Notes under the pieces: generated by a model
The model's database searches: none
Told to the model about the DNA's origin: nothing
What the model saw: only the letters and a program-made list of their open reading frames with translations
Shown here: positions 41,114 to 59,292 of the stretch, in pieces
Numbering within the stretch: the first letter of the stretch is position 1
Layout: each line of letters begins with the position of its first letter
Position numbers and translations under genes: made by a program
From: Promethearchaeota archaeon
GTDB taxonomy: Archaea > Asgardarchaeota > Lokiarchaeia > Sigyniarchaeales > SOKP01
Direction of reading: 5' to 3'
DNA: 64,000 bases
Assembly: GCA_048939995.1 (NCBI GenBank)
Contig: JBHLOY010000003.1
Location: 96,001-160,000 of the forward strand

Positions 41114-41363
41114 TATATTTCTGTTAAGAAATTATATAAACTTGCTTTTTTTAAATCAATCCATATCTATTTGCTCTTTCTGTATTTAAATATTTTGCAA
41201 TAATAAAGCTTAAATCTTAGGATTTCAATAAATTTAAAAAGAATAACATATCTTTAAAAAATAAATTACAAATTATAAAGACAGTAGAACCGATTAATTA
41301 AGCATTCAAACAACTGTAAAAGCTATTAACTATATAAAAAGGCTAATATGGAGTATCATTAAC

Positions 41364-42095
41364 ATGAGTTACAGCATCATTATTGATTTATCTCACAAGG
41401 AAAAAGTTGAAGAATTTCCAGAAATATCCTTGGGTGAAGAAGATATTGAAATTGATTACTTAGATAAAAATGAGGGCCCCATAGATTTTGAAACTATTGA
41501 AGATTATGACATACTCTTTATTGGCAACATTCAACATACAAAGAATGGCACAAATGATAAATTTACTAAAGATGAATTATTAGCTATCAAGAAATTTGTA
41601 GCTGAAGGGGGAGGGATGTTCCTAACTAGTGGTGATGGTGGCGACAGAGATATATCTATGAAAGACGGCTCAATTAGAGTTTTGTATAAAATAACAGGAG
41701 TAAAAAGATTTTGGAATGGTGTCATTCAAGAGACGCCTTCGAATTTCTTGGTAAATAGAAATAATTTATTAATAAATGAAATATTTAGTCATCCTATATC
41801 TTCGGGTGTTACTGAAGTAGTTCTTCCAAATAGTACTTTTTTCACTATTACAGAAGAAGATGTTGAGGATATAATAGTTACTTCCGAAAAAGCTGAATTC
41901 AAATATTATATTGATGATGATATAAGCGCTATAGGACCTGTACCCATCTGTGTTGTTTCTGATTTCTATAATGGGAGGAGCGTTACAATCGGGTCTTCGG
42001 AATTCTTAATGGAGGATTCAGATTTCGGGTTAGATGCTGGAGACAATCTTTTATTTCTTGAAAACATTATTAAATGGTTAACATTTGAAATATAG
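41364..42095 (+). CDS. Acidic GATase-like GIFT/DUF4350 domain protein (IFT52 N-domain-like)
   Basis: IDLSHKE, KFT.DEL.AIKKFV.EGGG, HPI and GRSVTIGS..DN..F..NII.WL motifs. Confidence 0.65.
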   Translation: MSYSIIIDLSHKEKVEEFPEISLGEEDIEIDYLDKNEGPIDFETIEDYDILFIGNIQHTKNGTNDKFTKDELLAIKKFVAEGGGMFLTSGDGGDRDISMKDGSIRVLYKITGVKRFWNGVIQETPSNFLVNRNNLLINEIFSHPISSGVTEVVLPNSTFFTITEEDVEDIIVTSEKAEFKYYIDDDISAIGPVPICVVSDFYNGRSVTIGSSEFLMEDSDFGLDAGDNLLFLENIIKWLTFEI

Positions 42096-42124
42096 TTATA
42101 ATATATTTTATTTTTAATAGTATT

Positions 42125-43225
42125 ATGGTATTTAGATTTATTCGCCCTGAAAGAGTTTGGCAAGATAAAACCATTTTAGCACGTTTTCCTAAATATAAAA
42201 GTATAATTGATGATGAGCAAATTGCAAGATATTTAGTTGCTAAAAGTGTAGAATGTGAATTTGATGAACAAGATTCTTTAAAGGTTTTAGAAAACTTATT
42301 ACATGATAAATCAATTGAATTTAAAAACCTTCTTAATGAAAAAATTAGCAACCTCAAAGATAGAGAATTAATACCGAACTCTTATATCAAATTGGCTGAA
42401 TTCATAGCAACCAAATATCTTGAAAGCTGCATTTTTTGCGAGAGACAATGTAAGGTCAACAGAATTGATGGAGAGAAAGGTTATTGCTTATTAACCAACG
42501 ATTCGTACGTTTCAAGTGCATTTCTTCACATGGGTGAGGAGAGCGTTTTAATTCCTAGTGGTACGATCTTCTTCCAAAGTTGTAATTTTGGCTGTGTTTT
42601 TTGTCAAAACTATGATATTTCTCAAGCTTGGAAGAAAGTTAAAGCAATTGAAGATGTTGCTAAAAAGGTTAACCCGAAAGAGTTAGCAATCTTAGCAGAA
42701 AAATTAGCCGATAAAGGAGCAATTAATATTAATTACGTTGGTGGAGATCCAATACCAAATATTCATACAATTTTAGGTAGCTTAACTTACCAAAAAGTAA
42801 ATATTTGTCAACTCTGGAATTCTAATTTTTATTTGACAGACCAGTCTCTCTCCTTGATAATAGATTTTATAGATTTTTGGCTCCCTGATTTCAAATACGG
42901 AAATAACGAGTGTGGGGAGAAATATTCGGGAATAAAGAATTATTGTGATGTTTTAACTCGTAACCTTAAACGCATTCATAATGATGGAAGTGGTGAGATT
43001 ATTATTAGACATTTGGTTATGCCTAACCACATTGAATGTTGTTCGAAACCAATTTTAGATTTTGTGGCAAAGGAAGTACCAAATTGTGTAGTCAATATTA
43101 TGGGACAATTTAGACCTGAATATAAAGCATACGACTATCCTGAAATCAATCGAAGGCCAACATCGGAAGAAATGCAACAAGTTAGAGAATATGCAGATAA
43201 ACTAGGAGTTCTTTGGGTTTCTTGA
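42125..43225 (+). CDS. Radical SAM protein, PflX-like
   Basis: C..CERQC.VNR, HMGEE, SGTIFF, CNFGCVFCQN, PDFKYGN and RHLVMP motifs. Confidence 0.9.
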   Translation: MVFRFIRPERVWQDKTILARFPKYKSIIDDEQIARYLVAKSVECEFDEQDSLKVLENLLHDKSIEFKNLLNEKISNLKDRELIPNSYIKLAEFIATKYLESCIFCERQCKVNRIDGEKGYCLLTNDSYVSSAFLHMGEESVLIPSGTIFFQSCNFGCVFCQNYDISQAWKKVKAIEDVAKKVNPKELAILAEKLADKGAININYVGGDPIPNIHTILGSLTYQKVNICQLWNSNFYLTDQSLSLIIDFIDFWLPDFKYGNNECGEKYSGIKNYCDVLTRNLKRIHNDGSGEIIIRHLVMPNHIECCSKPILDFVAKEVPNCVVNIMGQFRPEYKAYDYPEINRRPTSEEMQQVREYADKLGVLWVS

Positions 43226-43465
43226 GATCATTCTTTATAAAGAAAAATGATATAATAATATAATCTTTAAAAAAAAGAAGATTTTAGGAATGAAAAAGTA
43301 AAGCATCTTTTTTCAGTAATTTTTTATTTTAATCTTCAAAATGATTTTTAATTTTTGTTTTATTATTTTAAGAAATTATAGAAAAATCTAAAAACTATCA
43401 ATTATTTTCAAATTTAACTAATTAATTAATATGTTTCTTAAATTTTGACTTGAGAGTGATTTCAA

Positions 43466-44566
43466 ATGAGCTTAAAACTAGAAGACGTTAAAGGTTTAGG
43501 TAAAAGAGCAGAAAATCTAAGAACTGCGGGAATTGATACGGTTGAAAAATTAGCAAATGCTAAAATTGAGGATCTCTTAGAAATAAAAGGTATAGGAAAA
43601 GCTTCAGCTCAAAAGTATATTGATAATGCTAACTTTTTACTAAAGAAGGATGACGAGATGCAAGATGTTGTTGCTAAAAAAAAAGTAGAACGGATTAAAG
43701 ACGAAGGAGATAAAGAGATCGAAGAAACCAAGAGAATGGAAGAAAAACAAAAAACTCTTAGAGATATAACTGTGGAAAAAGGTGATTTTGTACTAGTAAA
43801 AATAACTGGAAAAACACAAAAAGGGAATGTTTTTCAAGTATCATCTGAAGAAGATGCCAAAAAGGCAGGTATTTTTGATGAAAATAAGGCAAAACAAGGA
43901 TATTATTCTCCTGAATTTATTATTGTTGGTAAGCCTGGTTTTCTAAATGAGGGTTTAACTGAGACGATTGAAAAAATGAAATTCTTCGAAAAAAAGTCAG
44001 TAAGAATCCCCCCAGGAAAAGCATTTGGTAAAAGGGACCCTCAAAAAATAGAAAGAATAGGTATTGCTAAATTTCGGAAATTAAATGAGGGAAAAAATCC
44101 TGAACTTGGACAAGATTTTGTAAAAAAGGGAACAGGTCAACGGGGTGTTGTAACTAATGTGGTTCAAGGGAGAGTTATAATAGACTATAATCATCCACTA
44201 GCAGGGCAGAGCGTTGATTACAACATTGAAATCATAGATAAAATTGAAGATTTCAATGAAAAAATAGAATATTTTATGTTTTCTAAAGGTATTCCTAAAG
44301 AAAGTATTTTAGAATTTAAATTAAAATATAATAAAGAGGATAAATCTCTTGAGATCACAATTCCAAAAACATTTTTATTCCAAAATCTAACCTACTTAAA
44401 GTTTGGATTAGCTTACGATTTACAGACTCATATGCCAGATGAAATAAACGACGTCAAATTTATAGAAATATATGAAAAAATGCCTATCCCCGCAATACCC
44501 GAAGAATCAGTACAAAAAAAGATTGAGGAATATAATCAAGACCATGAGCATGAGCACGAGCACTAG
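43466..44566 (+). CDS. HhH domain fused to a long-type FKBP peptidyl-prolyl isomerase
   Basis: N-terminal LLEIKGIGKASA. FKBP motifs IPPGKAFGKRD and IDYNHPLAG. C-terminal HEHEHEH. Confidence 0.88.
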   Translation: MSLKLEDVKGLGKRAENLRTAGIDTVEKLANAKIEDLLEIKGIGKASAQKYIDNANFLLKKDDEMQDVVAKKKVERIKDEGDKEIEETKRMEEKQKTLRDITVEKGDFVLVKITGKTQKGNVFQVSSEEDAKKAGIFDENKAKQGYYSPEFIIVGKPGFLNEGLTETIEKMKFFEKKSVRIPPGKAFGKRDPQKIERIGIAKFRKLNEGKNPELGQDFVKKGTGQRGVVTNVVQGRVIIDYNHPLAGQSVDYNIEIIDKIEDFNEKIEYFMFSKGIPKESILEFKLKYNKEDKSLEITIPKTFLFQNLTYLKFGLAYDLQTHMPDEINDVKFIEIYEKMPIPAIPEESVQKKIEEYNQDHEHEHEH

Positions 44567-44570
44567 AAAT

Positions 44571-45545
44571 TTATTCTACTTTAATTTTAGAAACTAATTC
44601 CTCTTTTTTAAGCTTTTTTTGCTCCTTATACTTATGTTTCTTTTTCTCGTAATCTGCTCTTTTCTCTTGAAACTCATGCTTTTTTTTCCATGCTTTCTTT
44701 TTATTATGTTTCTTATTTAAATATTCCTTTTTAGCCTTCTTGTATTCCTTTTTAGCTTTCTTATACTCTTTTTTACTCTTTTTATACTTTTCATACTTTT
44801 TTTTAAATTCCTTTCTCAGATTGGGACTGATTTTTTGAATTCCAAGATCACTCAATTGGTTTCTAAACTTTTCAAAAGATTCAAATCTTAAGACAATTAT
44901 GCCTAACTCATGAGCAGGAATTAGGTTCCTCATTTTGTCATCAATAAAAACGCATTTTTTAGGTTTTGCATCTAACTTTTTTAAAACATATTTATATTTT
45001 TCAATATCTGGTTTTATTAAACCAATTTCATTCGATAAAAATACATAATCAAACATTTCATAAAATCCTCTTAACTCATTTGACTTTGCATGGATATCAT
45101 GAGTGTTTGACATTAAACTTACAATATACCCTGCCTTATGTAATCTTTCAATTACTTCGGCCATTTCTAAAGATAAATGAGTCACCTTCGTGTATAAGTT
45201 AAACCAGAGTTCAACATAATAGGCAATGTTAACCCTTTTGGGAGGCAAAGCCCCATTTTTCGTTTGAAAAGGATAATAGTATTTTTCTAAAATTTTTTCT
45301 AAAAATTCATCAGAAGATATTATCCCTGAACTTAATCTACGTTTTAATTTTCTGATGTAAGGCGCCTCATCGATTTTTGGAATAGATATCATTAAGTCAC
45401 TTTCTATAAGTTCAAACAAATTTTTAAGTACAAAAGTTTTTTCTATTAAAACCCCTCCAAAGTCGAAAATGAAATGTTTAATTTTGTATAATCTAACCTT
45501 CTGCTTTTTAAGTATTTCTTTATCGAAATCTTCTTTTTCTGTCAA
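44571..45545 (-). CDS. HAD-superfamily phosphatase with Lys-rich C-terminal tail
   Basis: FDFGGVL, MSNT, KPD and FIDDK..N motifs, followed by an ~80-aa tail with KKEYKKA repeats. Confidence 0.88.
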   Translation of the reverse strand: MTEKEDFDKEILKKQKVRLYKIKHFIFDFGGVLIEKTFVLKNLFELIESDLMISIPKIDEAPYIRKLKRRLSSGIISSDEFLEKILEKYYYPFQTKNGALPPKRVNIAYYVELWFNLYTKVTHLSLEMAEVIERLHKAGYIVSLMSNTHDIHAKSNELRGFYEMFDYVFLSNEIGLIKPDIEKYKYVLKKLDAKPKKCVFIDDKMRNLIPAHELGIIVLRFESFEKFRNQLSDLGIQKISPNLRKEFKKKYEKYKKSKKEYKKAKKEYKKAKKEYLNKKHNKKKAWKKKHEFQEKRADYEKKKHKYKEQKKLKKEELVSKIKVE

Positions 45546-45562
45546 CTTTTAATCTCAATATA

Positions 45563-46360
45563 TTAATTTCTTTTATATTTTTCAATAATCATGTCACATA
45601 TTTTAGATACTGGATTGTGATTACCCTCCCAATTTGAAAACTCAGGGAAAGTGCCAGGATCTACTATATATAACTTATTAGATGACATTTCTCGAACCAT
45701 ATCTAAATGTCCAAATAATAAACCGGTTTTCTCTTTCCATTTCCAGACAATTTCTTTAATATCTAGGGGAGTTTCAATTATTTCAATGGGAGCATGTTCA
45801 TTCTCTAATGGCTCTTTCTTACAGACACATATTTCACTATTAATAAAATATACTAAGTAATGGATTCCATAAATAAATCGTTCGAGGTATAATATATTTG
45901 TCGGATCTTCCCTGATGTCTTTTATTGAGTTAATTAGTTTAACTCCTTTACTTCCTGATCCCATAAGAGGCTTTAATATCAATGGAAATAAACCATCAGA
46001 GATTTTATTTAAAGATTCAGATGTTCCTAAAAAGATGTGAGGGATATTGAAATTTAAATCTTTCAATAAAAAAGAGGCTTCCACTCTGTTCTTACATCTA
46101 AAAGATATATTTGTATTTGGAATTACAGGTATTTTATGTGCTTCTAAAAAATATCCTGCATAGAGAAATTGCAAATGTTTTGATTTCAGAATAAAGAAGT
46201 CGTTTTCGAGTAAGGAATTATTAATATATAGATTCCTTTTAGTGTACAACTTTACTTTAAATCCTTTCTTTTCGTAATAACTTTTCATTTTTCCGGTAAA
46301 ATGAGTCGATCTCTTTGACAGAATGCCTATTTTCATAATATGACCTCTATCTTTTAGCAT
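45563..46360 (-). CDS. ATP-grasp protein (ITPK1-like, degenerate)
   Basis: FPLILKP.MGSGSKGV, YLERFI, GHLD and IVDPGTFPEF motifs. Confidence 0.7.
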   Translation of the reverse strand: MLKDRGHIMKIGILSKRSTHFTGKMKSYYEKKGFKVKLYTKRNLYINNSLLENDFFILKSKHLQFLYAGYFLEAHKIPVIPNTNISFRCKNRVEASFLLKDLNFNIPHIFLGTSESLNKISDGLFPLILKPLMGSGSKGVKLINSIKDIREDPTNILYLERFIYGIHYLVYFINSEICVCKKEPLENEHAPIEIIETPLDIKEIVWKWKEKTGLLFGHLDMVREMSSNKLYIVDPGTFPEFSNWEGNHNPVSKICDMIIEKYKRN

Positions 46361-47165
46361 GCTCTAATAAGAAATTAGTTACTTTCTTGGGTCCATCTTT
46401 GATATAATTAAAATTCGGAGTCGAATTAACGTCGGTAACATAAAATTTTCCTTCTTTAGATTTTAAAAAATCTACTGATATTATATTTAAATCAAGGATT
46501 TTTTGGATAGTTCTAACTTTTTCTTCTAGTTCTGAGATAAAATCGATCTCCTTCCTTGATTTCATTTTATCTGGATCAATTAATACAGGGATTTGTTTGT
46601 AGAAGTACAGTGTATCCCCTATACCATAAACCTTATATTCCCATTTACTTTTAATGAATTTTTGATAATAATAGAATTGATAGTTTTCAGGGTTCCCATA
46701 AGCCTCAGTTAAAGCTCTCTCATCAACAATTTTGAGATGCCCCTCTACTTTTTCTATTTTTGGTTTGAAAGCATAATTTTTTTGGTCCACCACATTTTTT
46801 ATGATATAATCTTCAAAGGGTGGGGGCATTCCAACAGGTATTATCGCATAATCGGGAACATCGATTCCTGCTTTAGCTAACAATATACTACTTAAAAATC
46901 TATGAGATGATAACAAAATTCCTTTTGATGAATTGAAAACTGGAATTGATGTTTCATGTTCAATTAATTTTACTAAATTTAGTATTAAATCTCCTTTTCC
47001 TTTTACAAAGAAAACATCCTCTTTAAAGTCTGTAATTGAAAAGTCTAATAAGAAAGCTTCTTCCAAATAAATAGATATCTCTGCAGATTTTTTCAAATAT
47101 TTTAGAAATTCATTGACTTTCTTTTCTAAATGGTATTTGTCAATAATTAATCCGATCTTGGTCAA
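46347..47165 (-). CDS. ATP-grasp protein, ITPK1-like inositol-phosphate kinase
   Basis: YQKFI, YKVYGIG, SVDF and VTDVNSTPNF motifs. Confidence 0.72.
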   Translation of the reverse strand: MTKIGLIIDKYHLEKKVNEFLKYLKKSAEISIYLEEAFLLDFSITDFKEDVFFVKGKGDLILNLVKLIEHETSIPVFNSSKGILLSSHRFLSSILLAKAGIDVPDYAIIPVGMPPPFEDYIIKNVVDQKNYAFKPKIEKVEGHLKIVDERALTEAYGNPENYQFYYYQKFIKSKWEYKVYGIGDTLYFYKQIPVLIDPDKMKSRKEIDFISELEEKVRTIQKILDLNIISVDFLKSKEGKFYVTDVNSTPNFNYIKDGPKKVTNFLLEHAKR

Positions 47166-47372
47166 GTAATTTACCTTGTTGATACTTTTTTGAAGAAAAA
47201 TTGACGTATTTAGTTACAAATTTTATTATCTTATTTTAATATAAATAAGTCTTAAGGAATAATAAATTTAGGTTCCAAAAGGAATCTATGAATATTTGGT
47301 TTGTTATTTAAAATAAATATATTTATATAATATAATTTGCTTTTTAGAAATTGAATTAATAGGGTTTTTGAA

Positions 47373-48287
47373 ATGGCTAATAATGTTAAAAGGATTCATA
47401 TTGGAGCCATTTGTAATAGAGATCTCGAGGTTTTGGACAGAATAAAGAAATTTTTACTAAAAAATTACAACATATTTATTGTCGATTTACTAAAAAAAGG
47501 CTCCAATTCTTTTGATATTAAATATTTTAAAAAACAAATAAAAAAATACTCAATCTGTTTTTTAATTGTCAAACTGACAACCCAAAATTCTAATGAAGAG
47601 ATTTATGAGGCAATTAAGCGAGTAAGTCCTAATATTCTGGTTCTAAATAGTTTAAGTTCAGTTCAAGTTTGCGAAAGTCGTAAAGACACCTTTGCAAAGA
47701 TTAGTCAAAATTGTAAAAAAGTAAAGATTCCCACCACTTACTTTACATTAAAAGAAGCATTAAAAGCATGTCAAACTGGAACTAAAATAATTATTAAACT
47801 TGATGCTCATAATATCCCAAATTTTCCAAAGAATGATAGGATAATAGGAGTCGCCCATAATGTAAGTGAATTTAATGAGATGATTCAAACCTATAATGAA
47901 AAAGATTTATTTTTTCAAGAGTATTTAGGAGAGTTTGATATTATCTATAAAGTATATGTGATTGACCGATGGATGGTTTCAATTACATCTCATAATAGGC
48001 TACAAGATATTGATAATTTAACTCCATTAGAATTAATCCATATAAGAGTACCAATTGAAAAACAATTAAAAAGTAGAATAAAAAGGTTAGGCCGTAGATT
48101 CAGAATGAATATTTTTGGTTTAGACTACATTTTAACCGAAGATGGACCATGTATTATTGATGTTAACGATTTTCCAAGTTTTAGAAGTATCCCTGAAGGA
48201 ATAAGCTTAATTTCGGATTATATTTATAATCTCATATCATTACGAGAACAATATTTTCAAATGCGAGTTAAAGCTGAAGCAAAATAA
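47373..48287 (+). CDS. ATP-grasp protein, ITPK1-like inositol-phosphate kinase
   Basis: QEYL, YKVYVI, IFGLD and IIDVNDFPSF motifs. Confidence 0.78.
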   Translation: MANNVKRIHIGAICNRDLEVLDRIKKFLLKNYNIFIVDLLKKGSNSFDIKYFKKQIKKYSICFLIVKLTTQNSNEEIYEAIKRVSPNILVLNSLSSVQVCESRKDTFAKISQNCKKVKIPTTYFTLKEALKACQTGTKIIIKLDAHNIPNFPKNDRIIGVAHNVSEFNEMIQTYNEKDLFFQEYLGEFDIIYKVYVIDRWMVSITSHNRLQDIDNLTPLELIHIRVPIEKQLKSRIKRLGRRFRMNIFGLDYILTEDGPCIIDVNDFPSFRSIPEGISLISDYIYNLISLREQYFQMRVKAEAK

Positions 48288-48288
48288 A

Positions 48289-49380
48289 TTATTTTTCTCG
48301 TCTGTTTTTCAGAAATTCTATTAATCTTTCCTTAGCAATGTAGTCTTCTAATTGTTCAGGGGGATGCTTTGCAAAAAAAGAACAAGCTGAATATAAAACA
48401 CCCCCTATATTTCTATCTTTAGCTATTTTACTAACACGTATGCAATCCGTAATAACACCTGCCGAATTATTCCCATCTTCTACAAATAAAGTGAGATCTA
48501 TTCTTACGGGAGCTCCTCCAAAAACACGGCCTTCAAGTCTAATATATGCTTCTTTTTGGTTTTTTAAGAATGGAATATAATCAACTGCAGAAATTTGACA
48601 ATCTATAGAATCTTTATTTTCTAAATTAGCTATAACCGATTCTGTTTTAGATTGTCGTTTTCCTTCTTCATAACGTAAAGTACCATCATTCATAGGGGTT
48701 AATAAGTTACAAAAATCACTTGAACCTCCCCAATCAAGTTGCAATGTTCGATCTAAGATTGCTCCTCTCATAGGAAATAGATTAGCAAGTGATCTATGTA
48801 TAATAGTTGCCCCAATTTGAGATTTTACATCATCTCCTATAAGTGGGAGGTTTAATTCTTCAGCTTTAGCAATTATTTCTGGATTTTTAACAACATGAGA
48901 TGGCATTCCATTCACAACACAAGCTCCTGCATCAAGAGCTGCCATGGCATAATATTTTACAGCTTTATGGCTTCCAGTAGGAAGTAATATAACAACAACA
49001 TCAACGTTTCTATTTATTAATTCTTTAACCATATCAACAGGCTTTTGATTGTAGTCTATAGGAATAATATTTTTTATATTACTGTCTAATCCATCCATAA
49101 TAGGACCTTTAACTACAGGTGCATTTAGAAACTTTGGTTTAAAGAGAATCATGTTACAATTAGGCTCAGCAAAAATCGCTTCACTTAAATCCTTACCAAC
49201 TTTTTTTGAATTTACATCCACTCCTAATACAAAATTAATGTCATTTATACTATATTGAGTTATCTCTGGTAGGACTCCTATAATTTTGTTGGGATTTTGT
49301 TTATAATTCTCACACCCTTGTATTAAAGCGCTTGCTACATCTCCTACTCCAATAATAGCGACGTTGATTTTTTTCGCCAT
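48289..49380 (-). CDS. ino1: myo-inositol-1(3)-phosphate synthase
   Basis: GVGDVASAL.QG, KVGKDLSEAIF, LPTGS, GDDVKSQIGAT..HR, SKT and NSAG motifs. Confidence 0.93.
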   Translation of the reverse strand: MAKKINVAIIGVGDVASALIQGCENYKQNPNKIIGVLPEITQYSINDINFVLGVDVNSKKVGKDLSEAIFAEPNCNMILFKPKFLNAPVVKGPIMDGLDSNIKNIIPIDYNQKPVDMVKELINRNVDVVVILLPTGSHKAVKYYAMAALDAGACVVNGMPSHVVKNPEIIAKAEELNLPLIGDDVKSQIGATIIHRSLANLFPMRGAILDRTLQLDWGGSSDFCNLLTPMNDGTLRYEEGKRQSKTESVIANLENKDSIDCQISAVDYIPFLKNQKEAYIRLEGRVFGGAPVRIDLTLFVEDGNNSAGVITDCIRVSKIAKDRNIGGVLYSACSFFAKHPPEQLEDYIAKERLIEFLKNRREK

Positions 49381-49484
49381 AATATTTTCTATAATAAAAG
49401 GATTGTATTTAAATCATTTTAAAATCTAAAGCTTTAATATTGAATTATAATTTGCAAATAATCTAGAAAATGAAAAATTAAACC

Positions 49485-51923
49485 ATGGTGGCTACCATAC
49501 TATTTAATCAAATTAACTTAAATTTGCTTCCATTAATTATTATCTTTTTGATATTATTTTTTATTGCAGTGTATTTATTCTTACCTTGGATCTTTAAAAT
49601 TTTTGTGTCTCCCAGATTTAATGCTAGTTATATCTATCGCTCAAAGGATTTTAAAAAAAAAGAATTAGACGTTCCTCTAAATAAAAAAGATAATTTTCAA
49701 ATAGATTTTGATAACAAATCAGGATTATATTCTATTTCATTTGGAAAAAACAGAAAATTTTTGGATGGAAATATAAAAATTAGGTACCAATTAAGAGATT
49801 ACAGTATTTGTAAAACAAAAAGTAAGTCTCTCAAATTAATCTCTTGTGCTGAAATCGATGGAAATGATAGACTAGGAGCATTCAAATCAATAAATGCCGA
49901 ATTTAGGTTGAAAGACGAAGACCTTTTTTTTGAGATTTCAATAAAAAATTACATTCAAGAAAAATTCATTATATTTGAGCTGAATGTTCCTAAAGGTTTA
50001 GAAAACGATTTTTCTGATAAAAAGTCAAAGCTTATTACCTCCTTTCCGTCCTTTATAAATAAAAGCCCTCATACAAAAATACTTACTTTCCGGAATACAA
50101 AATTTTGTCCTCCTTCAAGAAAATTTGATTCTACGTCTGCTCCTGTTTTATTATATGATGATGATTTAAATTGTTTTACCTTGTGTCCCTTAGATGGGTT
50201 TTTAAATACTTTGATCTCAAAAGATAAACATAACAGAATAAATTGTGGCATCCAAGGAGAAATTAAAGAATTACCAAAAAATTTTTCTCAAAAATTTATT
50301 CTTCTTTTTAGTAAAGGGATAAATCATTCTTTGGAGCATTTAGGAGATATTTTATTAAAATTTCATGATTCTAAACGCAAAAATCTTTATGCTAATGTTG
50401 TTACGTCATATTTAGGATATTGGACAGATAACGGTGGATATTACTATTATAAGACTGAGAAAGGAATGAATTATGAAGACACAATGATGGTTATTAAAGA
50501 ATATTTTGTAAAAAATAATATACCAATAAAGTATTACAATTTTGATAGTTGGTGGTACTTAAAACATACAAATAAATTTTTTACTACGTTATTTAGGTTT
50601 ATTGTAAGACTAGCGGGAGGCGGATTATATGGTAATACTTTACTTTGGGAAGTCGATCCAACCAATTTTACAACTAATTTAAAGACTTTTCATCGAAAAT
50701 TTCAAATACCAATTACTGCCCATAATCGTCGTTGGGACTCTAGATCTCCTTATGTAGATAAGTATAAATTTGAAACCTACAAAAATCATGCTGTGCCACT
50801 GAAAAAAGAATTCTGGCAGTGGTTGATGACTCATGCGAGAGAAAGTGGCATTGTTGTTTACGAACAAGATTGGATTAAAAACCAAATTGCAAGTATGCCT
50901 ATTTTGAGGCAAAAATTCAATGCTCAAGAAAATTGGTTAAACAATATGGCCACTGCAGCAAAGGAAAATGAGATAGATGTATTTTATTGTATGCAAACTC
51001 CTGGAATCCTCCTATATAGTATAAAACATTCAAATGTTAATATTTCCAGATGCTCAGAGGATTATAATCACAGATGGCCTTTAACTTATAGATATGTTCA
51101 CTCAACTCAGACAAATATCCTTTTCAATGCGGTAGGAATTAATTCTCATCCAGATGTTTTCCGTTCAAGAACAATAGAAAATGTAAGATTAAGACCTTTT
51201 GGAGAAAAATATCCCAATTTTAAATGTCTATACCAGATCTTAAATGGTGGAGTAGTTGCTCCTGGTGATAAAAAAGAAAATGTAAATTGGGCTCTCCTTA
51301 AAAGAACATGTAGGGATGATGGTTTATTACTAAAGCCGGATAAATCATTAACAGTTAATGATCTAATGTTTAAGAAGCATAGAAAATACTATATTTGTGA
51401 TACTTATACTAAGATAAATCATTTAACTTGGAGTTATATTGTAATTACCAATATATGGCCTCGAAGAGTTAAAGAAACTTCTTTCACACTAAGAGATCTA
51501 GGCTTTGAGATGGGTGATTATATTATCTATGATTATTTTTCTGATACTTTATCTCGAATTAATTTTGATAAAAAGATTGAAATAGGGCGATTAAAAAGAT
51601 ATGGTTATAAATATTATATTATCTCCCCCCTCACAAAAAATGAAATGGCTTTAATTGGGTGTCCTGATAAATTCATTACTTGTTCAAGAAAACTAATTAT
51701 AAACATAAATACAGATGAGAGATCTATAAAATTTTCAGTTCAAAATATAAAAGGTGCTAAAGTAAAATTGTTGTTCTATTCAGAAAAAAGACCTACTAAA
51801 ATTCAGATTGATAATGAATTAAGCAATACATGGAATTATATTAAAGAACTTAGTAGATTAGAAGTAAACATTAGGTTCGATAAAGATAGTAGAAAAGAAA
51901 TTTTAATCCAAAATATGATCTAG
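49485..51923 (+). CDS. Membrane-anchored glycoside hydrolase, GH-D clan-like (GH27/31/36)
   Basis: N-terminal TM helix, then YWTDNG.YYY, FDSWWY, YEQDW, YCM, RCSEDY and DG.LLKPD motifs. Confidence 0.6.
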   Translation: MVATILFNQINLNLLPLIIIFLILFFIAVYLFLPWIFKIFVSPRFNASYIYRSKDFKKKELDVPLNKKDNFQIDFDNKSGLYSISFGKNRKFLDGNIKIRYQLRDYSICKTKSKSLKLISCAEIDGNDRLGAFKSINAEFRLKDEDLFFEISIKNYIQEKFIIFELNVPKGLENDFSDKKSKLITSFPSFINKSPHTKILTFRNTKFCPPSRKFDSTSAPVLLYDDDLNCFTLCPLDGFLNTLISKDKHNRINCGIQGEIKELPKNFSQKFILLFSKGINHSLEHLGDILLKFHDSKRKNLYANVVTSYLGYWTDNGGYYYYKTEKGMNYEDTMMVIKEYFVKNNIPIKYYNFDSWWYLKHTNKFFTTLFRFIVRLAGGGLYGNTLLWEVDPTNFTTNLKTFHRKFQIPITAHNRRWDSRSPYVDKYKFETYKNHAVPLKKEFWQWLMTHARESGIVVYEQDWIKNQIASMPILRQKFNAQENWLNNMATAAKENEIDVFYCMQTPGILLYSIKHSNVNISRCSEDYNHRWPLTYRYVHSTQTNILFNAVGINSHPDVFRSRTIENVRLRPFGEKYPNFKCLYQILNGGVVAPGDKKENVNWALLKRTCRDDGLLLKPDKSLTVNDLMFKKHRKYYICDTYTKINHLTWSYIVITNIWPRRVKETSFTLRDLGFEMGDYIIYDYFSDTLSRINFDKKIEIGRLKRYGYKYYIISPLTKNEMALIGCPDKFITCSRKLIININTDERSIKFSVQNIKGAKVKLLFYSEKRPTKIQIDNELSNTWNYIKELSRLEVNIRFDKDSRKEILIQNMI

Positions 51924-51927
51924 GGCT

Positions 51928-53250
51928 TTATTTTTTGATTAAAGTTTCCTTTACCTTTAAGAAAAGAGGAATAGATCCTAAAAAGAAAATTGGTGCGAAT
52001 ACAAATACAAATGATTCTGGTATGATACCAACTACTAACATATATGTAGCAACTAAACCACCTACTATAGAACCAATTATCTGCGAGAGAGTACGTATAA
52101 TATTTAACAATCCAAGGAACTTTCCTCTTTCAAATTCAGGTAATAAATCTTGCGACCATGCATTCATTGGGGTTTCTAAACCCAAAATGCCGATAAGTAT
52201 GAATGGAAATAATATCAGTAATAAAATTAAATTGATTGATGTTCCTAGTTTAACAAAGGGAATATAGATCATTGCCATTGATATAATGTATATTGAAAGT
52301 GGAATATATACTCGACGACCATGCTTATCGCTAAGATTTCCTAATATTGATATAGCTATAAATAGTACAATGAAGGAAATAAGAACTAAAAAGACCAACT
52401 CAATTGTAGTTAATCCTAAAGCGAATATCCATATAAACAAAAAAGGCATAATTGTAGATATTCCTGTTCTATATACTGTGAGCGCAATTACTAATTTGAA
52501 GAATTCCTTGTTTTCTCTTAATTTTTTCATATTAAAAATTTCTTTAAATTCAGTAAAAAATCCACTTTTGGGAGGTAATTCTTCTACAGATTTCTCCTTT
52601 ATAAACAAAAATCCTATAAGCCCTGTAATGCATATACTTATCCCACCAACAGCTAAAGTAAAAATATGACCCGTCTGTCCAATAAAAGTCCCCTCAGGTG
52701 TTTCTACTCCAAAAATCAAGTCTGCTACAAGGAATGAAGCTACGGCTAGTAATAATCCGATATTTCCTATAATATTCACAATACCATTTGCCCTTCCCCT
52801 TTTTTCTAGCTCAACTAAATCTGGAATAAGAGCGCGTTCAGATACATAATATGCATTTGATGTAATTCCAATTATTATGACATCTAAAATAATACATATT
52901 ATATAGGCAATTATGACATTTCCACCAGCAAGATTAATCGAAAAAGCAAATATTATCATTGAAACCCCTGAAATAATTCCATAGAGTAAAAATGGACGAC
53001 GTCTACCAAATTTTCCCCTTGTATTATCACTTTTTATTCCCCACATTAAATTTGTGACCAATCCCACTACTGCTGATAAACTAACCATTAGAGTAATGAA
53101 TAAAGGTTCCAAAAATAAAACTTGATCTAAATATGTATTTAAATAATTTTGCTCAAAGAAACCAAAGATTGTCTCGCCTGCTAAAAGAAGTCCTATTAAA
53201 TAAACTTGATTTCGCAAGAAATTGCTAAACACTTTTTCCCTTTTTCCCAT
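51928..53250 (-). CDS. MFS transporter (GPH/sugar-like)
   Basis: SDNTRGKFGRRRPF, ALIPDL..RGRANG and LSDKHGRR motifs. Confidence 0.9.
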   Translation of the reverse strand: MGKREKVFSNFLRNQVYLIGLLLAGETIFGFFEQNYLNTYLDQVLFLEPLFITLMVSLSAVVGLVTNLMWGIKSDNTRGKFGRRRPFLLYGIISGVSMIIFAFSINLAGGNVIIAYIICIILDVIIIGITSNAYYVSERALIPDLVELEKRGRANGIVNIIGNIGLLLAVASFLVADLIFGVETPEGTFIGQTGHIFTLAVGGISICITGLIGFLFIKEKSVEELPPKSGFFTEFKEIFNMKKLRENKEFFKLVIALTVYRTGISTIMPFLFIWIFALGLTTIELVFLVLISFIVLFIAISILGNLSDKHGRRVYIPLSIYIISMAMIYIPFVKLGTSINLILLLILFPFILIGILGLETPMNAWSQDLLPEFERGKFLGLLNIIRTLSQIIGSIVGGLVATYMLVVGIIPESFVFVFAPIFFLGSIPLFLKVKETLIKK

Positions 53251-53337
53251 GTTTAATCCTCCATTAACTATTTAAGGAATAAGTTTTAATTTTATTTTGA
53301 TTTTATTATTTAAAAGGATATCTTTTTAACACAAAGG

Positions 53338-54231
53338 ATGCTAAAAAAAGTCGTAATCTCTGCCAGAGAAGATCATGAAATAATAAAACGTGTAATAGGA
53401 AAATTAAGCAAGTTAAAAGAAATTGAACTTATTACTCATGATCCTAAAAAGGATTATTTCACCCTTTCAAGTATGCCTACATCATTTAAAGAAGCTGATT
53501 TAATTATTGTAAAGGTTAGAAATGAATGTTCAATTGATCTCCTTCACTTTGCTAAGATTTATAATATTCCAACACTTCATGATGTAGATACCGTTCTAAT
53601 GTGTAAAAATAAAGTTTCTCTTGACTTTTCTTTGCGAGAAGCGTTTGTTAAACATCCTACACTTAATAGATATTTTTCTCTGCCACATTCTTGGAACCAA
53701 AATGTATCTGATATATTACAATTTAAGGATTGGGCGGCCTCTAAACTACCATTCGTTATAAAAAGCCATTATCAGCATGATAAGAATAATCGATTTAATT
53801 TTTTGGTAAGAGAATTAAATGAAATCGATATATTTTGTAAAAAGTACGCAGAATTCCTGTATTATGATGTATATATACAAGAATTCATAGAAAGCGATGG
53901 TATTGAAAGGAAAATCTATGTGGTAGGTGATAAAATCTATGGTATCCAGAGAGAAAACCCCTTATATATCTACTTACGAGAGAAACCGGAAAATATTAAT
54001 GTTGAAAAAATTCCTAGACAAGAATTTAAAATAACAGAGAGTATTAGAACATTAGCGAGAATTTTAGCAAAAGAATTAGACGTAAAAATATTCGGATTTG
54101 ATCTTATTCGTCCTCTAAGTAAAAGAAAGTATTATTTAATTGATTTAAATGATTTTCCAGGATTTATGGGTATTCCAAATATAGAAGATGCAATAGTAGA
54201 ATACATTAAAAATTACATTTCAAATATTTAA
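53338..54231 (+). CDS. ATP-grasp protein, ITPK1-like inositol-phosphate kinase
   Basis: LPFVIK, IQEFI, KIYVVG, IFGFD and LIDLNDFPGF motifs. Confidence 0.8.
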   Translation: MLKKVVISAREDHEIIKRVIGKLSKLKEIELITHDPKKDYFTLSSMPTSFKEADLIIVKVRNECSIDLLHFAKIYNIPTLHDVDTVLMCKNKVSLDFSLREAFVKHPTLNRYFSLPHSWNQNVSDILQFKDWAASKLPFVIKSHYQHDKNNRFNFLVRELNEIDIFCKKYAEFLYYDVYIQEFIESDGIERKIYVVGDKIYGIQRENPLYIYLREKPENINVEKIPRQEFKITESIRTLARILAKELDVKIFGFDLIRPLSKRKYYLIDLNDFPGFMGIPNIEDAIVEYIKNYISNI

Positions 54232-54232
54232 C

Positions 54233-55081
54233 TTATGCTGTAATTAATGAAACTGGGAATATTACTAGCCAAGCTATAATCCCATATAGTATGCAAAAGT
54301 ACCCAAATTGAACTTTTTTTGAAATTCTGATTAAAATTTCCATTGAAAGATAACCTACTATAAAGCTGACGATAGTTACTATTATTATTGTTAATGGATC
54401 TAAGACACTGAGCATGTATCCTCCTCCAAACAAAATATCAACCACAATAGAAGCTAAGGCAACAGGAACAGACATCAAAAAACTTAATTTTAATGCATTT
54501 TCTTGTGTATACTTCTCAAGCAATATCGTCGAAACTGTGAAACCTGACCGGGAAACTCCTGGTAAAATAGCAAAACCTTGAGATAAACCTGCAAGAAGTG
54601 AATTTTTTATGGTTTCCTTGCCTGTGGTGTTTTGAATCTCCTTTGTGCCATATATCTTTTTAATTCTTAGTAAAAAAATCCCAGTTATTATTAAAAGTCC
54701 AGAAATTATTAAAGTTAAAATATCTCCCTGAGAAGAGGTAAATCCTCCTAAAATGATGAGTTGGAAAAGAAAATATAACGGTAAAGCAGTAATTGCGGTT
54801 CCAATTGTACCGATTATTAACCAATTTCTTTTTTTTATACTATTATCATCACTAATCGACCATTTAGGTAAGATAGTTTTAGCAATATTAAAGTAATCTT
54901 TTCTAAACTTAACTATAACTGCAAAAGTAGTTCCTAAATGTAACCAAATTGAAAGACTGAATGCTACATCTGGTGAGACGTCAAATAGATTCAATGAAAT
55001 AATCATTACCTGACCTGAAGATGATATTGGTAACCATTCAAAAAGACCCTGTAAGATTGCGATAATTATCAATTCAATCAT
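54233..55081 (-). CDS. uppP: Undecaprenyl/polyprenyl-diphosphate phosphatase (BacA)
   Basis: QGLFEWLPISSSG, HLGT and AILPGVSRSG motifs. Confidence 0.92.
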   Translation of the reverse strand: MIELIIIAILQGLFEWLPISSSGQVMIISLNLFDVSPDVAFSLSIWLHLGTTFAVIVKFRKDYFNIAKTILPKWSISDDNSIKKRNWLIIGTIGTAITALPLYFLFQLIILGGFTSSQGDILTLIISGLLIITGIFLLRIKKIYGTKEIQNTTGKETIKNSLLAGLSQGFAILPGVSRSGFTVSTILLEKYTQENALKLSFLMSVPVALASIVVDILFGGGYMLSVLDPLTIIIVTIVSFIVGYLSMEILIRISKKVQFGYFCILYGIIAWLVIFPVSLITA

Positions 55082-55563
55082 AAATCTTCAATATAGTTTT
55101 TTAAACCCTTTAATAAACAATCAATAATTTCATCTCTAGCAACCCTAAACCCGCGTAATTCTTTCATAGATGGATCTTCGATGTCTCCAGAATCACCGGC
55201 AAATTCTTTTAACGTTACAATTACTTTATTACTTTTTTTGACGTATTTTTGAATTTCTTCACTATGATTCTGGGTTAGCGTAAGTATTAGATCAGAATCA
55301 TAAATTAAGTTAGGATGTCTTTTCAAGTCTATTGAAAGCGAATTATCTGGTAAATCAATTCCTATTTCTTTCATGGCTAATTTAGCATCAAGAGATATAA
55401 GCATCCCATCTCTTGCATTTGAAGATATCCCCCCAGACATAACATTTATATCTAGATTATATTTCGAAAACAAATTCTTTAAGAAACCAACTGCCATGGG
55501 GCTTCTGGCTGTATTCACACTGCAAACGATTAATATATTTTTATAAGGAAAGTTAGTCTTCAT
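55078..55563 (-). CDS. Low-molecular-weight protein Tyr/Arg phosphatase family
   Basis: P-loop VCSVNTARSPMA and DIEDP. Confidence 0.88.
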   Translation of the reverse strand: MKTNFPYKNILIVCSVNTARSPMAVGFLKNLFSKYNLDINVMSGGISSNARDGMLISLDAKLAMKEIGIDLPDNSLSIDLKRHPNLIYDSDLILTLTQNHSEEIQKYVKKSNKVIVTLKEFAGDSGDIEDPSMKELRGFRVARDEIIDCLLKGLKNYIEDL

Positions 55564-56233
55564 AAAAACTCCCTATATTAACAAATTTCACATTCTTTTT
55601 TTTCATATTTTCTAAAGAATTTGAAATATTACCCGGAGGGATATCTATCCCTCTTGTTAAATCTATCAATAAATATCCTTCGAATCCAAAGTCAAGACCA
55701 TCCATAGCTGTAAAATAACAGCAGTAGTCTAATGCTAAACCACAAATAAAAATTCTCTTGATATTTAAAGACTTTAAATAACCTGCTAATCCAGTTTCAG
55801 ATTTTTTATCATTTTCAATAAATCCAGAATAACTATCAATCTGAGGATTATAACCTTTACGGATTATCGCATAAGCTAAATCTGTTTTTAGTTTACTATG
55901 GAAATCTGCCCCCCTTGAACCTTGTACGCAGTGATCAGGCCATAAAACAGGCCCAATCGCTTCAGTTTGATATAAATCTCCAGGATTTTTTCCTGGATGA
56001 TTACTTGCGAATGATAAGTGTTCTTGAGGATGCCAATCTTGGGTTAATACAATTATGGCATTACTTTTTTTAAACTTGCCTGCTAAAAGGTTGATATCAT
56101 TAATTATTTGGTCCCCTTCCTTAACTGGTAATGCTCCACCCGGCATAAAATCGTACTGCATATCCACGATAATCAACGCATCATCCTGATTAATTTCAAT
56201 ATTACTTATAACTTCTATATCCTCAATATCCAT
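55553..56233 (-). CDS. pncA: Nicotinamidase/pyrazinamidase
   Basis: VDMQYDF.PGGAL, QDWHP..H, WPDHCVQ, DSYSGF and GLALDYC motifs. Confidence 0.95.
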   Translation of the reverse strand: MDIEDIEVISNIEINQDDALIIVDMQYDFMPGGALPVKEGDQIINDINLLAGKFKKSNAIIVLTQDWHPQEHLSFASNHPGKNPGDLYQTEAIGPVLWPDHCVQGSRGADFHSKLKTDLAYAIIRKGYNPQIDSYSGFIENDKKSETGLAGYLKSLNIKRIFICGLALDYCCYFTAMDGLDFGFEGYLLIDLTRGIDIPPGNISNSLENMKKKNVKFVNIGSFYED

Positions 56234-57102: not shown

Positions 57103-59292
57103 TTACCATGAAAGCCCTTTATTAAAGCGTAGATTACTTATTATTGAATTAGCTTCATGATCCGGAACTTCCATAAAAGAATAAAATTCATTTTGCCAGA
57201 AAGCTCTTCCAGAAGTAGCAGATCTAATATCTTCAGCGAATTTTATTGAATTCCTGACAGGAATAAGGATTTCAATTATCGCTTGATATTCCTTATCCTG
57301 GTTTATATTTTTAATTTTAGCAGAATATTTTGTAAGTAAAGATAAAACGCTCTTTATATAATCTGGAGGAAGTTGGATAATGCTATGGTATATTGGCTCA
57401 AGTAATATCAATTCTGCTTCATTTAGAGCTTTCTTTATACCCTCGTATAAAAGAGTTGATAATTCAGTGAATGCATTCTCTTCATTTAAATTATTTATTG
57501 TTAGATTTTCTATTAGAATTTTAAGTTCAGTAAGTTTTTCTCCGCAAAGTGGCCCATTCAACTGAATTTTTTCAAAACTTTCTATAATAGTATCTTTGAA
57601 AAAAGTACTAAAAGTATCTGCTCCATGATAAATTAATAGATTTTGGTCATCATCAAATTTCCAAAAATTTTTTATTTCATCCTCCTTCAAATTTGTTTTT
57701 TCTAATAAAACATCCTTGAGAGCATCCAATGGCTTAAAGGAACCAATATTTATTGATTGTAAAAATCGAGCAGTTTTAGGATCTAGTCTCTCAATTTTAA
57801 TTGATAATGTATTCTGGTTGTTTGGTGAATTTACAGTGATAAAAGAGGAATGATATCTACAAGATTCTTTAAAAACCGCTCTTGGTTCTGAAATCGATAC
57901 ATTCACACCTCTTTTTTCAATTTCTTTTGCTGTAACTTCAAGGTGCAATGGCCCCATACCCGATAATAAGAATTCACCATTTTCCTCATTTATTTCAAAC
58001 CTTAAGTTTGGATCCTCAATTAACAAGATTTCAATTAACTCTCTCATCTTATCTAAATTTCTAAGGTATTCCGGTTCGATGGATACGGTCACTACGGGGG
58101 TTGTTACGTATTTTACTTCCTCAAATGGAATCATTTCTTCTTTATATTTGCTTTCAACAATGGTTTCGCCACTTCTAATCTTTTTTAATCCCTCTATTGC
58201 TACAATATTTCCAACAAGAACCCGATCAACTTGTTCTCTTCTCTGTCCCATGAAAATAGCTGTTCTTTGGATAGTAGCATAATCGTTTTCCCTTAAAAGA
58301 AAAATTTCTTCTTTTTTTGAACAGATACCAGAGAAAATTCTTCCAGTTGCTACTAAATTTTGCTTATCAACTTGTACCTTACTTAAACAAATGACTAACG
58401 GACCATTTGGATCACAATTCTTCATAGCTCTTCCTATTTCTACATTAATATCACCGTCCCAGATTTTATCTATCCGATAACTCTGTGCATCTATAGGATT
58501 AGGAAGATGATCCACAACCATTTCTAATATTGCTCTGTGAATTGGAAAGTAGCTTGCTAAATCTGAATATGTTTTTTTAGAATAAGTCTCCTTTTTATAT
58601 CTAGCTCTTATGTCATTAAATTTAAGATCGCTTTCCTCTAACATTTTTAGAGTAAACCCCCATTTATGGAGAGCAGATCCAAAAGCAACATTTCCGCTAG
58701 CTGGAGATACTTGCCATTCTTTTTTAAATTCTTTGTCTGCAAATCTTTCAATAAGTGTATTAAAGTCATTTATTATTCGTGTATACTTCTTTCGTATCTG
58801 TTCGTCATTTAATTTCAATTCTCGAATAAGACGATCTACTTTATTAATAAATAGAATAGGCTTAACACACTCTTGTAGTGCTTGTTTAATCACTGTTTCT
58901 GATTGGCTAATAATTTCTTCGACAGCATCAACTACGACCACAACACCGTCTACAAGTCTTAAGGCTCTTGTTACTTTACCACTAAAATCTAAATGTCCAG
59001 GGGTATCTACTAAATTAATTAAAAAAGGTTTGCGTTTTTCTAATGTTTTTTCATAATATAATGAAATATTAGCTGATTTCATTGTAATTCCACGTTGTTG
59101 CTCTTCTTCTAAATAATCAAGTGCTCTGGCTTCTCCCGCTAATTCTGGTGACAAAAAACCTGCTTCACTTAATAATGAGTCAGATAAGGTAGTTTTTCCA
59201 TGATCAATGTGACCTACTAATCCAAAATTTCTAATATTTTCAGTCTGTTCCATCATTCGTAATATATCTGTAATTTCCTTTCTACGTGGCAT
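57103..59292 (-). CDS. Elongation factor 2 paralog (aEF-2p), diphthamide motif absent
   Basis: GHIDHGKTT, RGIT, DTPGH, NKVD, GMGPLHLE and LLEP motifs. No HRG in domain IV and no adjacent rps7/rps12. Confidence 0.88.
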   Translation of the reverse strand: MPRRKEITDILRMMEQTENIRNFGLVGHIDHGKTTLSDSLLSEAGFLSPELAGEARALDYLEEEQQRGITMKSANISLYYEKTLEKRKPFLINLVDTPGHLDFSGKVTRALRLVDGVVVVVDAVEEIISQSETVIKQALQECVKPILFINKVDRLIRELKLNDEQIRKKYTRIINDFNTLIERFADKEFKKEWQVSPASGNVAFGSALHKWGFTLKMLEESDLKFNDIRARYKKETYSKKTYSDLASYFPIHRAILEMVVDHLPNPIDAQSYRIDKIWDGDINVEIGRAMKNCDPNGPLVICLSKVQVDKQNLVATGRIFSGICSKKEEIFLLRENDYATIQRTAIFMGQRREQVDRVLVGNIVAIEGLKKIRSGETIVESKYKEEMIPFEEVKYVTTPVVTVSIEPEYLRNLDKMRELIEILLIEDPNLRFEINEENGEFLLSGMGPLHLEVTAKEIEKRGVNVSISEPRAVFKESCRYHSSFITVNSPNNQNTLSIKIERLDPKTARFLQSINIGSFKPLDALKDVLLEKTNLKEDEIKNFWKFDDDQNLLIYHGADTFSTFFKDTIIESFEKIQLNGPLCGEKLTELKILIENLTINNLNEENAFTELSTLLYEGIKKALNEAELILLEPIYHSIIQLPPDYIKSVLSLLTKYSAKIKNINQDKEYQAIIEILIPVRNSIKFAEDIRSATSGRAFWQNEFYSFMEVPDHEANSIISNLRFNKGLSW

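Follow-up and report, generated by a model that had tools for sequence, protein, structure and literature searches.

Gene content and layout of the locus

Here, we analyze a cluster of eight genes of the Promethearchaeota archaeon GCA_048939995.1, in which four genes for ATP-grasp proteins, named KA, KB, KC and KD, lie around a gene for an inositol phosphate synthase (MIPS, or Ino1), together with genes for a HAD phosphatase, a glycoside hydrolase (GH) and a transporter of the major facilitator superfamily (MFS). The cluster was studied within a stretch of 64,000 nucleotides (nt), hereafter the window, corresponding to positions 96,001–160,000 of the forward strand of contig JBHLOY010000003.1. 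The original prediction, made on the same DNA, had described four ATP-grasp open reading frames (ORFs) around ino1 and three D-x-N motifs; these are all present, and the eight ORFs that it named (8/8) were found where it had placed them (Table 1). The motifs IDVNDFPSF, IDLNDFPGF and TDVNSTPNF belong to KC, KD and KB, respectively, and in KA the corresponding sequence is D-P-G. The ORF finder places the start of KA at 46360, but its orthologues begin at the Met at 46336.

Table 1. Genes of the inositol phosphate synthase locus, with their positions in the window.
Gene	Coordinates	Strand	Assignment	Evidence
HAD	44571–45545	–	HAD-IA phosphatase; putative optional accessory of the module	PF00702, 58 bits
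KA	45563–46336	–	Short ATP-grasp protein with apparently remodelled active site; probable partner subunit of KB	
KB	46347–47165	–	Short ATP-grasp protein; candidate kinase	
KC	47373–48287	+	ITPK1-type kinase; probable LcIKC orthologue	PF05770, 23.8 bits; Arg156
MIPS/Ino1	48289–49380	–	Predicted inositol phosphate synthase; module-specific orthogroup	PF01658, 72 bits
GH	49485–51923	+	812-aa membrane-anchored glycosidase of the GH-D clan (GH36-like), by predicted fold; probable passenger in a variable slot	Structural model
MFS	51928–53250	–	MFS transporter, GPH-like; probable passenger in the same slot as GH	PF07690, 111 bits
KD	53338–54231	+	Clearest ITPK1-type kinase	PF05770, 59.3 bits; 7/7 signature residues

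Since the strands alternate along the eight genes (–, –, –, +, –, +, –, +), with 207, 104 and 87 bp between divergently oriented neighbours and with convergent ends, the block comprises at least six transcription units and is not an operon. The only possible multi-gene transcript is KB-KA-HAD. The names of the homologues place the genome in Promethearchaeota/Lokiarchaeia. Elsewhere in the genome, the search revealed no further ITPK-like gene and no second MIPS, and a true RimK-family gene was found on another contig. No IPK domain was found in the genome by a scan in which PF03770 scored above its cut-off in the Methanosarcina acetivorans control; the genome also gave no match to the SPX domain, for which the control matched nowhere either.

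KC, KD and the synthase belong to established families

Both KD and KC pass the curated cut-off (23 bits) of the PF05770 (Ins134_P3_kin) model; MIPS, HAD and MFS likewise score above those of their own Pfam models (Table 1). When the family profiles were compared with the PDB, KD retrieved ITPK structures first (maize ITPK1, E 2e-15) and the ten best matches of KC were all ITPKs. The residues were evaluated at seven diagnostic ITPK columns, namely the equivalents of K59, K157, K199, R212, D281, D295 and N297, of which K157, D281, D295 and N297 carry the numbering in general use for ITPKs. The numbering of K59, K199 and R212 follows Desfougères et al. (2019; PMC6900528). The rows of eukaryote-type ITPKs used for reference were picked by motif and confirmed by Pfam, independently of taxonomy. 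KD matches them in all of the columns, KC in 6/7 (R212 is replaced), KB in 6/7 and KA in 4/7. Furthermore, Arg156 is invariant in KC and is the same residue named in LcIKC, one of the Lokiarchaeum kinases discussed below. By profile and residues, therefore, KC and KD are assigned to the ITPK1-type kinases. KD, KC and KB share the ATP-grasp fold and the signature residues with the ITPK1 of eukaryotes (PF05770; human, maize, Entamoeba). For the N-terminal pre-ATP-grasp domain (PF17927), no match at E 0.1 was found in KA–KD with a model that also missed 2 of 10 eukaryote-type ITPKs.

MIPS aligns over its full length with the solved structure 1gr0 (279 bits) and falls under the equivalog cut-off of the mycothiol INO1 family (304 vs. 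638); its conversion of glucose 6-phosphate into Ins(3)P is strongly predicted from its sequence. The orthogroup to which it belongs is 75–90% identical among the genomes having the module, and at most 46% identical to the other MIPS of Lokiarchaeia. Up to three MIPS paralogues occur in some relatives (G053, L099, G032, G145, G080), in tandem at this very locus in G053 (L071:12829–16304).

KB and KA, a candidate kinase and its probable partner

KB keeps the equivalents of K59, K157, K199, D281, D295 and N297, and carries Gln in place of R212; it would be the third kinase of the locus. The case of KA is different from that of a canonical ITPK: the position of Lys199 is occupied by Lys in none of 219 homologues and that of Asn297 is Gly in all 219, so that the active site is apparently altered in its catalysis. 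KA nevertheless retains the lysine that binds ATP and the two aspartates, and it has a GSGS loop and three histidines that are invariant (His159, His181 and His210).

The equivalents of Lys59 and Asp295 are present in all four proteins, whereas the five RimK/LysX rows compared carry Arg and Glu at these positions; all four are devoid of the Arg/Arg/Glu-x-Asn signature of the ligases. Against the RimK-family model TIGR00768 they score 30–42 bits, compared with a cut-off of 143.4, and KC gives no match. An earlier, quick phylogenetic tree did not resolve the deep nodes. In a more careful one, RimK/LysX stand apart from the D-x-N group (support 100/99) and KA is the sister of KB (99/88); this tree gives no order of branching at the base of the D-x-N group, and no lineage emerges from it as the nearest to eukaryotes.

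The two proteins are also predicted to associate. The KB-KA complex modelled with ESMFold2 obtained a score of 0.93, vs. 0.00 for the best of three controls, where the mark adopted is reached by 58 of 80 solved pairs and by 2 of 110 mismatched pairs. Separate runs share at least 95% of the contacts, with a predicted local distance difference test (pLDDT) of at least 89 for the partner, and the predicted interface is reciprocal, with the N-domain of one chain on the central domain of the other. The model supports the binding of KB and KA to each other, and KA would be the non-canonical partner of KB. No relative of KB was found in the viral contigs searched, and a search of other Asgard families, covering 232 genomes outside family f1, gave no KA. 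Among the Asgard families searched, PF05770 was found at E 1e-5 only in two families of Lokiarchaeia.

Conserved order and co-inheritance of the module

The order KA-KB-KC-MIPS…KD is conserved in 45 of the 48 loci of relatives holding KC, MIPS and KD, indicating that the arrangement is not due to chance and answering positively the question of whether the neighborhood is conserved. A census was performed on 60 genomes; as the Lokiarchaeia are related to one another, its counts are descriptive and not independent. The locus-type MIPS was found in 22 of the 60, KC in the same 22 and in one more, and KA and KB each in 21 of the 22. Conversely, KA, KB, KC and the locus-type MIPS are all absent from 14 genomes belonging to five other genera, although 12 of these keep KD, usually beside an FKBP gene, and 11 have a MIPS of about 44% identity. 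KA, KB, KC and their dedicated MIPS are inherited together, and KD is inherited separately. The MIPS-linked module of ITPK1-like kinases proposed originally is therefore supported for these four genes, but not as a single block extending to KD, in view also of the alternating strands.

Some variants of the locus were observed. In the relative G092 (L060), KB is truncated and KA was not found, and KC, MIPS and KD are retained, a possible joint decay of the pair. In G148, belonging to another family and with a genome 66% complete, genes of the KC and KB types are in convergent orientation (L104:9703–11347) with no KA or MIPS nearby. In genus g4 (L087–L089, L100), loci without the module have a gene for a PHP-family phosphoesterase that separates FKBP from KD.

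A copy outside the Asgard archaea and the wider D-x-N family

A profile search revealed marine contigs in which KC is divergent from a run of KB-KA-MIPS; the KB and KA genes share 4 nt there. In contig JASLWR010000039.1, from the metagenome-assembled genome (MAG) GCA_030740765.1, KC, KB, KA and MIPS are 30, 37, 38 and 64% identical, respectively, to the genes of the window, and KA shows the same substitutions of the Lys199 and Asn297 equivalents. The assignment of this copy to Thermoplasmatota rests on the MAG labels, and its MIPS is named by NCBI as from Candidatus Thermoplasmatota archaeon. The flanks include archaellins, a GPN GTPase, a glycyl-tRNA synthetase (GlyRS) and three PfkB kinases, with a GC content of 45–47%; the nearest Atlas cluster of the GPN GTPase is mostly of Thermoplasmatota, which can be taken as a lead only. 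The MIPS so labelled (64%) is closer to that of the window than the other MIPS of Lokiarchaeia are, and in another contig a KC-type gene is divergent from a MIPS of 63% identity. No HAD, GH, MFS or KD was found within the stretch of the Thermoplasmatota contig that was fetched. Because the same four genes recur there, the link with MIPS survives both rearrangement and a change of phylum and, as far as the MAG labels hold, the module is not confined to Asgard archaea. No title or abstract describing KA, KB or an ITPK locus of Thermoplasmatota was found in a literature search that covered few subscription journals.

Short D-x-N ATP-grasp proteins are also common in Chloroflexota, including Ktedonobacteria, and in Actinomycetota. 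As a rule they come in tandem pairs, with genes for APH-like kinases and ABC transporters alongside. Some of them are fused to IMPase, mannitol (polyol) dehydrogenase or APH domains. On this basis, the motif points to a lineage connected with the chemistry of polyol or cyclitol phosphates and does not in itself prove an inositol phosphate kinase. The bacterial tandem pairs apparently represent an uncharacterised system related to ITPK1.

The HAD phosphatase

The HAD gene was found in 17 of the 22 genomes having the module vs. none of the 38 others, and at the locus itself in 30 of 39 cases, in support of its proposed membership of the module. The protein shows the HAD-IA motifs I–IV except that motif I reads D-F-G-G, with the second Asp replaced by Gly; D28 (the nucleophile), S146, N147, K178 and D202 are invariant. 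Its tail of 81 aa (44571–44810) contains 37 Lys, derives in part from a 21-bp repeat (44721–44786) and is kept in the orthologues, and it could bind polyanions. HAD may be an optional phosphatase that reverses one of the steps of the module.

In Arabidopsis ITPK4 a HAD-like domain is joined to the kinase, whereas in the window a separate HAD gene lies beside the kinases; the HAD of ITPK4 is capless and displayed no activity (PMC7614388). Comparison by BLAST with a HAD-ITPK fusion did not support the idea that the HAD of the locus is a stand-alone counterpart of the HADs fused to ITPKs. One HAD-ITPK fusion, P0500 (L146), was observed in a JGI contig; it is a eukaryote-type ITPK with an N-terminal HAD domain, unlike the fusion with a capless HAD in plant ITPK4. 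Several genomes of genus g6 have two HADs in tandem.

The variable slot between MIPS and KD

The 812-aa GH gave no match in the Pfam, NCBIfam and PDB sequence searches and was placed by fold alone. Its model (pLDDT 93.8) has the three-domain fold of the GH-D clan, with a TIM barrel, and the best Foldseek matches are the Arabidopsis alkaline α-galactosidase structures 7exf and 7exh (TM about 0.6, 11–12% identity). With this GH36 family of alkaline α-galactosidases and raffinose synthases it has in common the invariant Asp residues (Asp354, Asp462 and Asp526, in GH-D-like motifs), and differs from it in the low identity, in the lack of a Pfam match and in a single N-terminal membrane helix serving as anchor. 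The MFS protein scores below the cut-off of TIGR00792.

In the 48 loci compared, the slot between MIPS and KD contains GH in 7, MFS in 24 and an unrelated protein of 940 aa in 12, is empty, with MIPS and KD adjacent, in 15, and holds GH and MFS together in only one; genes for GH2, aldolase and dehydrogenase are found in it elsewhere. GH occurs in 6 of the 22 genomes with the module vs. 19 of the 38 without it, and MFS adjoins KD in 4 of 12 loci lacking the module. A slot with such freely varying content does not uphold the proposed roles of GH and MFS as turnover and import arms, and both are probably passengers unrelated to the inositol module. An outward-facing hydrolase with an importer, for the scavenging of sugars, would be the simplest reading of the pair.

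The 940-aa slot protein (e.g., L039:7686–10505), conserved in 14 loci among L031–L082, has no Pfam or NCBIfam match and is usually followed by a Zn-dependent dehydrogenase. Its N-terminal HxNxxH-like motif presumably recalls the barrels of GH38 and GH57.

Proposed function of the module and alternative explanations

Taken as a whole, the locus is best explained, with a reasonable if not high degree of confidence, by three layers: a lipid-independent inositol phosphate module (KB-KA, KC and MIPS, with HAD), a resident KD, and a sugar-scavenging cargo (GH and MFS). KB-KA, KC and their own MIPS would most likely make phosphorylated inositols without lipids. MIPS would convert glucose 6-phosphate into Ins(3)P, and KC, as the orthologue of LcIKC, would phosphorylate an inositol monophosphate, as suggested by the partial rescue of yeast published for that kinase. 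KB, the predicted catalytic half of the KB-KA heterodimer, probably adds a further phosphate, and KA, which has apparently lost the usual residues for phosphotransfer, may bind ATP and a polyanion and act as scaffold, sensor or regulator. The Lys-tailed HAD would be the optional phosphatase of the module. KD would be an ITPK1-type kinase resident beside the FKBP gene whether or not the module is present, and GH and MFS would be cargo of a slot that elsewhere is filled with other hydrolases or left empty.

A more specific and distinctly more tentative proposal is that KB-KA is an obligate heterodimer of the ITPK lineage, either enzyme and pseudoenzyme or two different chemistries. Together with KC and the dedicated MIPS, the pair would constitute a prokaryotic pathway of four genes leading to higher inositol phosphates, shared by Lokiarchaeia and marine Thermoplasmatota. 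If this is true, the native synthesis of polyphosphorylated inositols would extend to archaea other than Asgard.

Several results, in addition to the relatedness of the genomes in the census, weigh against the three-layer explanation. KB and KA score 14.3 and 14.2 bits with PF05770, below its cut-off. In the PDB searches the KA family profile finds ArgX/LysX first, and that of KB finds ArgX as the best match (E 8e-5) and Entamoeba ITPK1 at E 0.069. The KA model (pLDDT 93) is by fold nearest to ArgX/LysX (Z 24.9, root-mean-square deviation 2.6, 255 residues aligned); ITPK1 is not among the best 50 rows of the VIA-align comparison, although kinship with it is not contradicted by the fold, because maize ITPK1 is at rank 8 in the Foldseek search. 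LysX/RimK-type proteins form solved dimers, and the score of the KB-KA complex may stem from likeness to these ATP-grasp structures. The bacterial D-x-N pairs lie near a MIPS in only 4 of 80 loci, and because of this rarity the motif is no proof of an inositol substrate. Finally, in the published work (Desfougères et al., 2019; PMC6900528) the evidence on LcIKC comes from yeast only, a host whose own enzymes complete IP6.

The description of four ITPK1-like kinases must be revised accordingly: it holds for KD and KC by Pfam and residues, KB stays under the Pfam cut-off in spite of its 6/7 residues, and for KA, which across its family has no equivalent of Lys199 and Asn297, the term overstates what the sequence suggests. 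The comparison with the two profile models, proposed with the prediction, gave a similarly mixed outcome, all four proteins failing TIGR00768 and only KD and KC passing PF05770. Clustering with RimK/LysX had been named as evidence to the contrary; the best tree separates the ligases, but approximately unbiased (AU) tests do not reject the placement beside RimK of KA (p 0.20) or of KA and KB together (p 0.36).

A different reading deserves attention, even if we consider it rather unlikely: KA-KB could be an ATP-grasp enzyme of other chemistry, ligase-like or based on His-dependent transfer, which turns the product of MIPS and KC into a solute, a cofactor or a lipid head group, leaving KC and KD as the only inositol phosphate kinases. 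It is favoured by ArgX/LysX as the best match of both proteins in profile and structure searches and by the kinship with RimK allowed by the AU tests, as well as by the GSGS loop of KA, which LysX/ArgX/RimK have in common with it, and its three invariant His, maintained in two phyla and implying a constraint beyond the needs of a dead scaffold; four CDP-alcohol transferases and an IMPase in the genome could use inositol products. On the other hand, KB has Lys/Lys/Asp where the ligases carry Arg/Arg/Glu, the RimK-family scores are far under the cut-off, the genome possesses a true RimK-family gene elsewhere, and no conserved gene for an acceptor or carrier is next to the module.

The inositol phosphate module also accounts for the data better than the reading from which the analysis started, in which the whole 9.7 kb is one system for synthesis, turnover and import whose four kinases phosphorylate different positions of the ring in relay. 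We regard this as improbable. All the genes are indeed adjacent in the window, the slot repeatedly collects sugar genes, HAD tracks the module, and the nearest solved fold of GH, 7exh, is an alkaline α-galactosidase crystallised with galactinol, an inositol galactoside. However, an identity of about 12% carries no information on the substrate of GH, which cannot be inferred from that structure; GH and MFS accompany each other in a single one of the other loci, and GH is commoner where the module is missing. A relay of four kinases is at odds with the loss of two catalytic residues throughout the KA family and with the preference of KA and KB for LysX/ArgX over ITPK1 in the PDB, and KD is inherited separately in a block of six transcription units. 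Lastly, the genes could be clustered as a leftover of ancestral order in a single archaeal family, with KA-KB unconnected to inositol. The housekeeping neighbours (proteasome beta, FKBP, UppP, PncA) are indeed equally syntenic in the family, but this reading is highly improbable, since the Thermoplasmatota contig has all flanks different and still keeps KB-KA-MIPS and KC together, and the four genes are jointly missing from five genera.

Comparison with published systems

That Lokiarchaeal homologues of ITPK1 had already been reported was correctly stated in the original prediction. In particular, Desfougères et al. (2019; PMC6900528) describe in Lokiarchaeum four such homologues (LcIKA–LcIKD), two pairs of which flank two IPS genes, and predict a role as IP1 kinases; LcIKC partly rescues the plc1-delta yeast, so that the complementation proposed for the locus has already been carried out with this kinase. 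As in the window, ITPK1-like genes flank an IPS gene and the kinase carries Arg156; in contrast, the Lokiarchaeum loci comprise two pairs around two IPS genes and the window has one MIPS. A HAD neighbour, a heterodimer or a copy outside Asgard archaea are not mentioned in the main text of that article. The core of a synthase with ITPK1-like kinases is known since that work. New here are the four-gene module spanning two phyla, the census of substitutions in KA, the prediction of the complex with controls and the result that GH and MFS are probably not part of the system.

Contig LAZR01006160.1, which we take to belong to the Loki's Castle metagenome, shows the order KD-MIPS-KC-KB-KA-HAD, and its KC has Arg156. 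Because of this order, and of the adjacency of MIPS and KD in 15 of 48 loci, the four published LcIK genes probably represent the KC/KD pair in duplicate, in which case KA and KB would have been left undescribed.

The locus bears on whether prokaryotes, and which of them, make inositol polyphosphates themselves, the archaeal kinases of 2019 having been tried only in yeast. A compact set of four genes conserved across two archaeal phyla would allow the reactions from glucose 6-phosphate to be reconstituted with defined components and indicates which genes to omit. The view of ITPK-like kinases as a eukaryotic signature exclusive to Asgard archaea is weakened, because a Thermoplasmatota MAG and soil bacteria also have related D-x-N proteins.

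Neighbouring genes

The flanks of the locus are conserved whether the module is present or absent. Upstream (40424–44566) are genes for proteasome beta, a 243-aa protein, a radical SAM protein and FKBP, and downstream (54233–56233) those for UppP, a low-molecular-weight (LMW) phosphatase and a nicotinamidase (PncA). Further along the window, at 57103–59292, lies an EF-2 paralogue without the diphthamide His motif, presumably resembling the Asgard aEF-2p.

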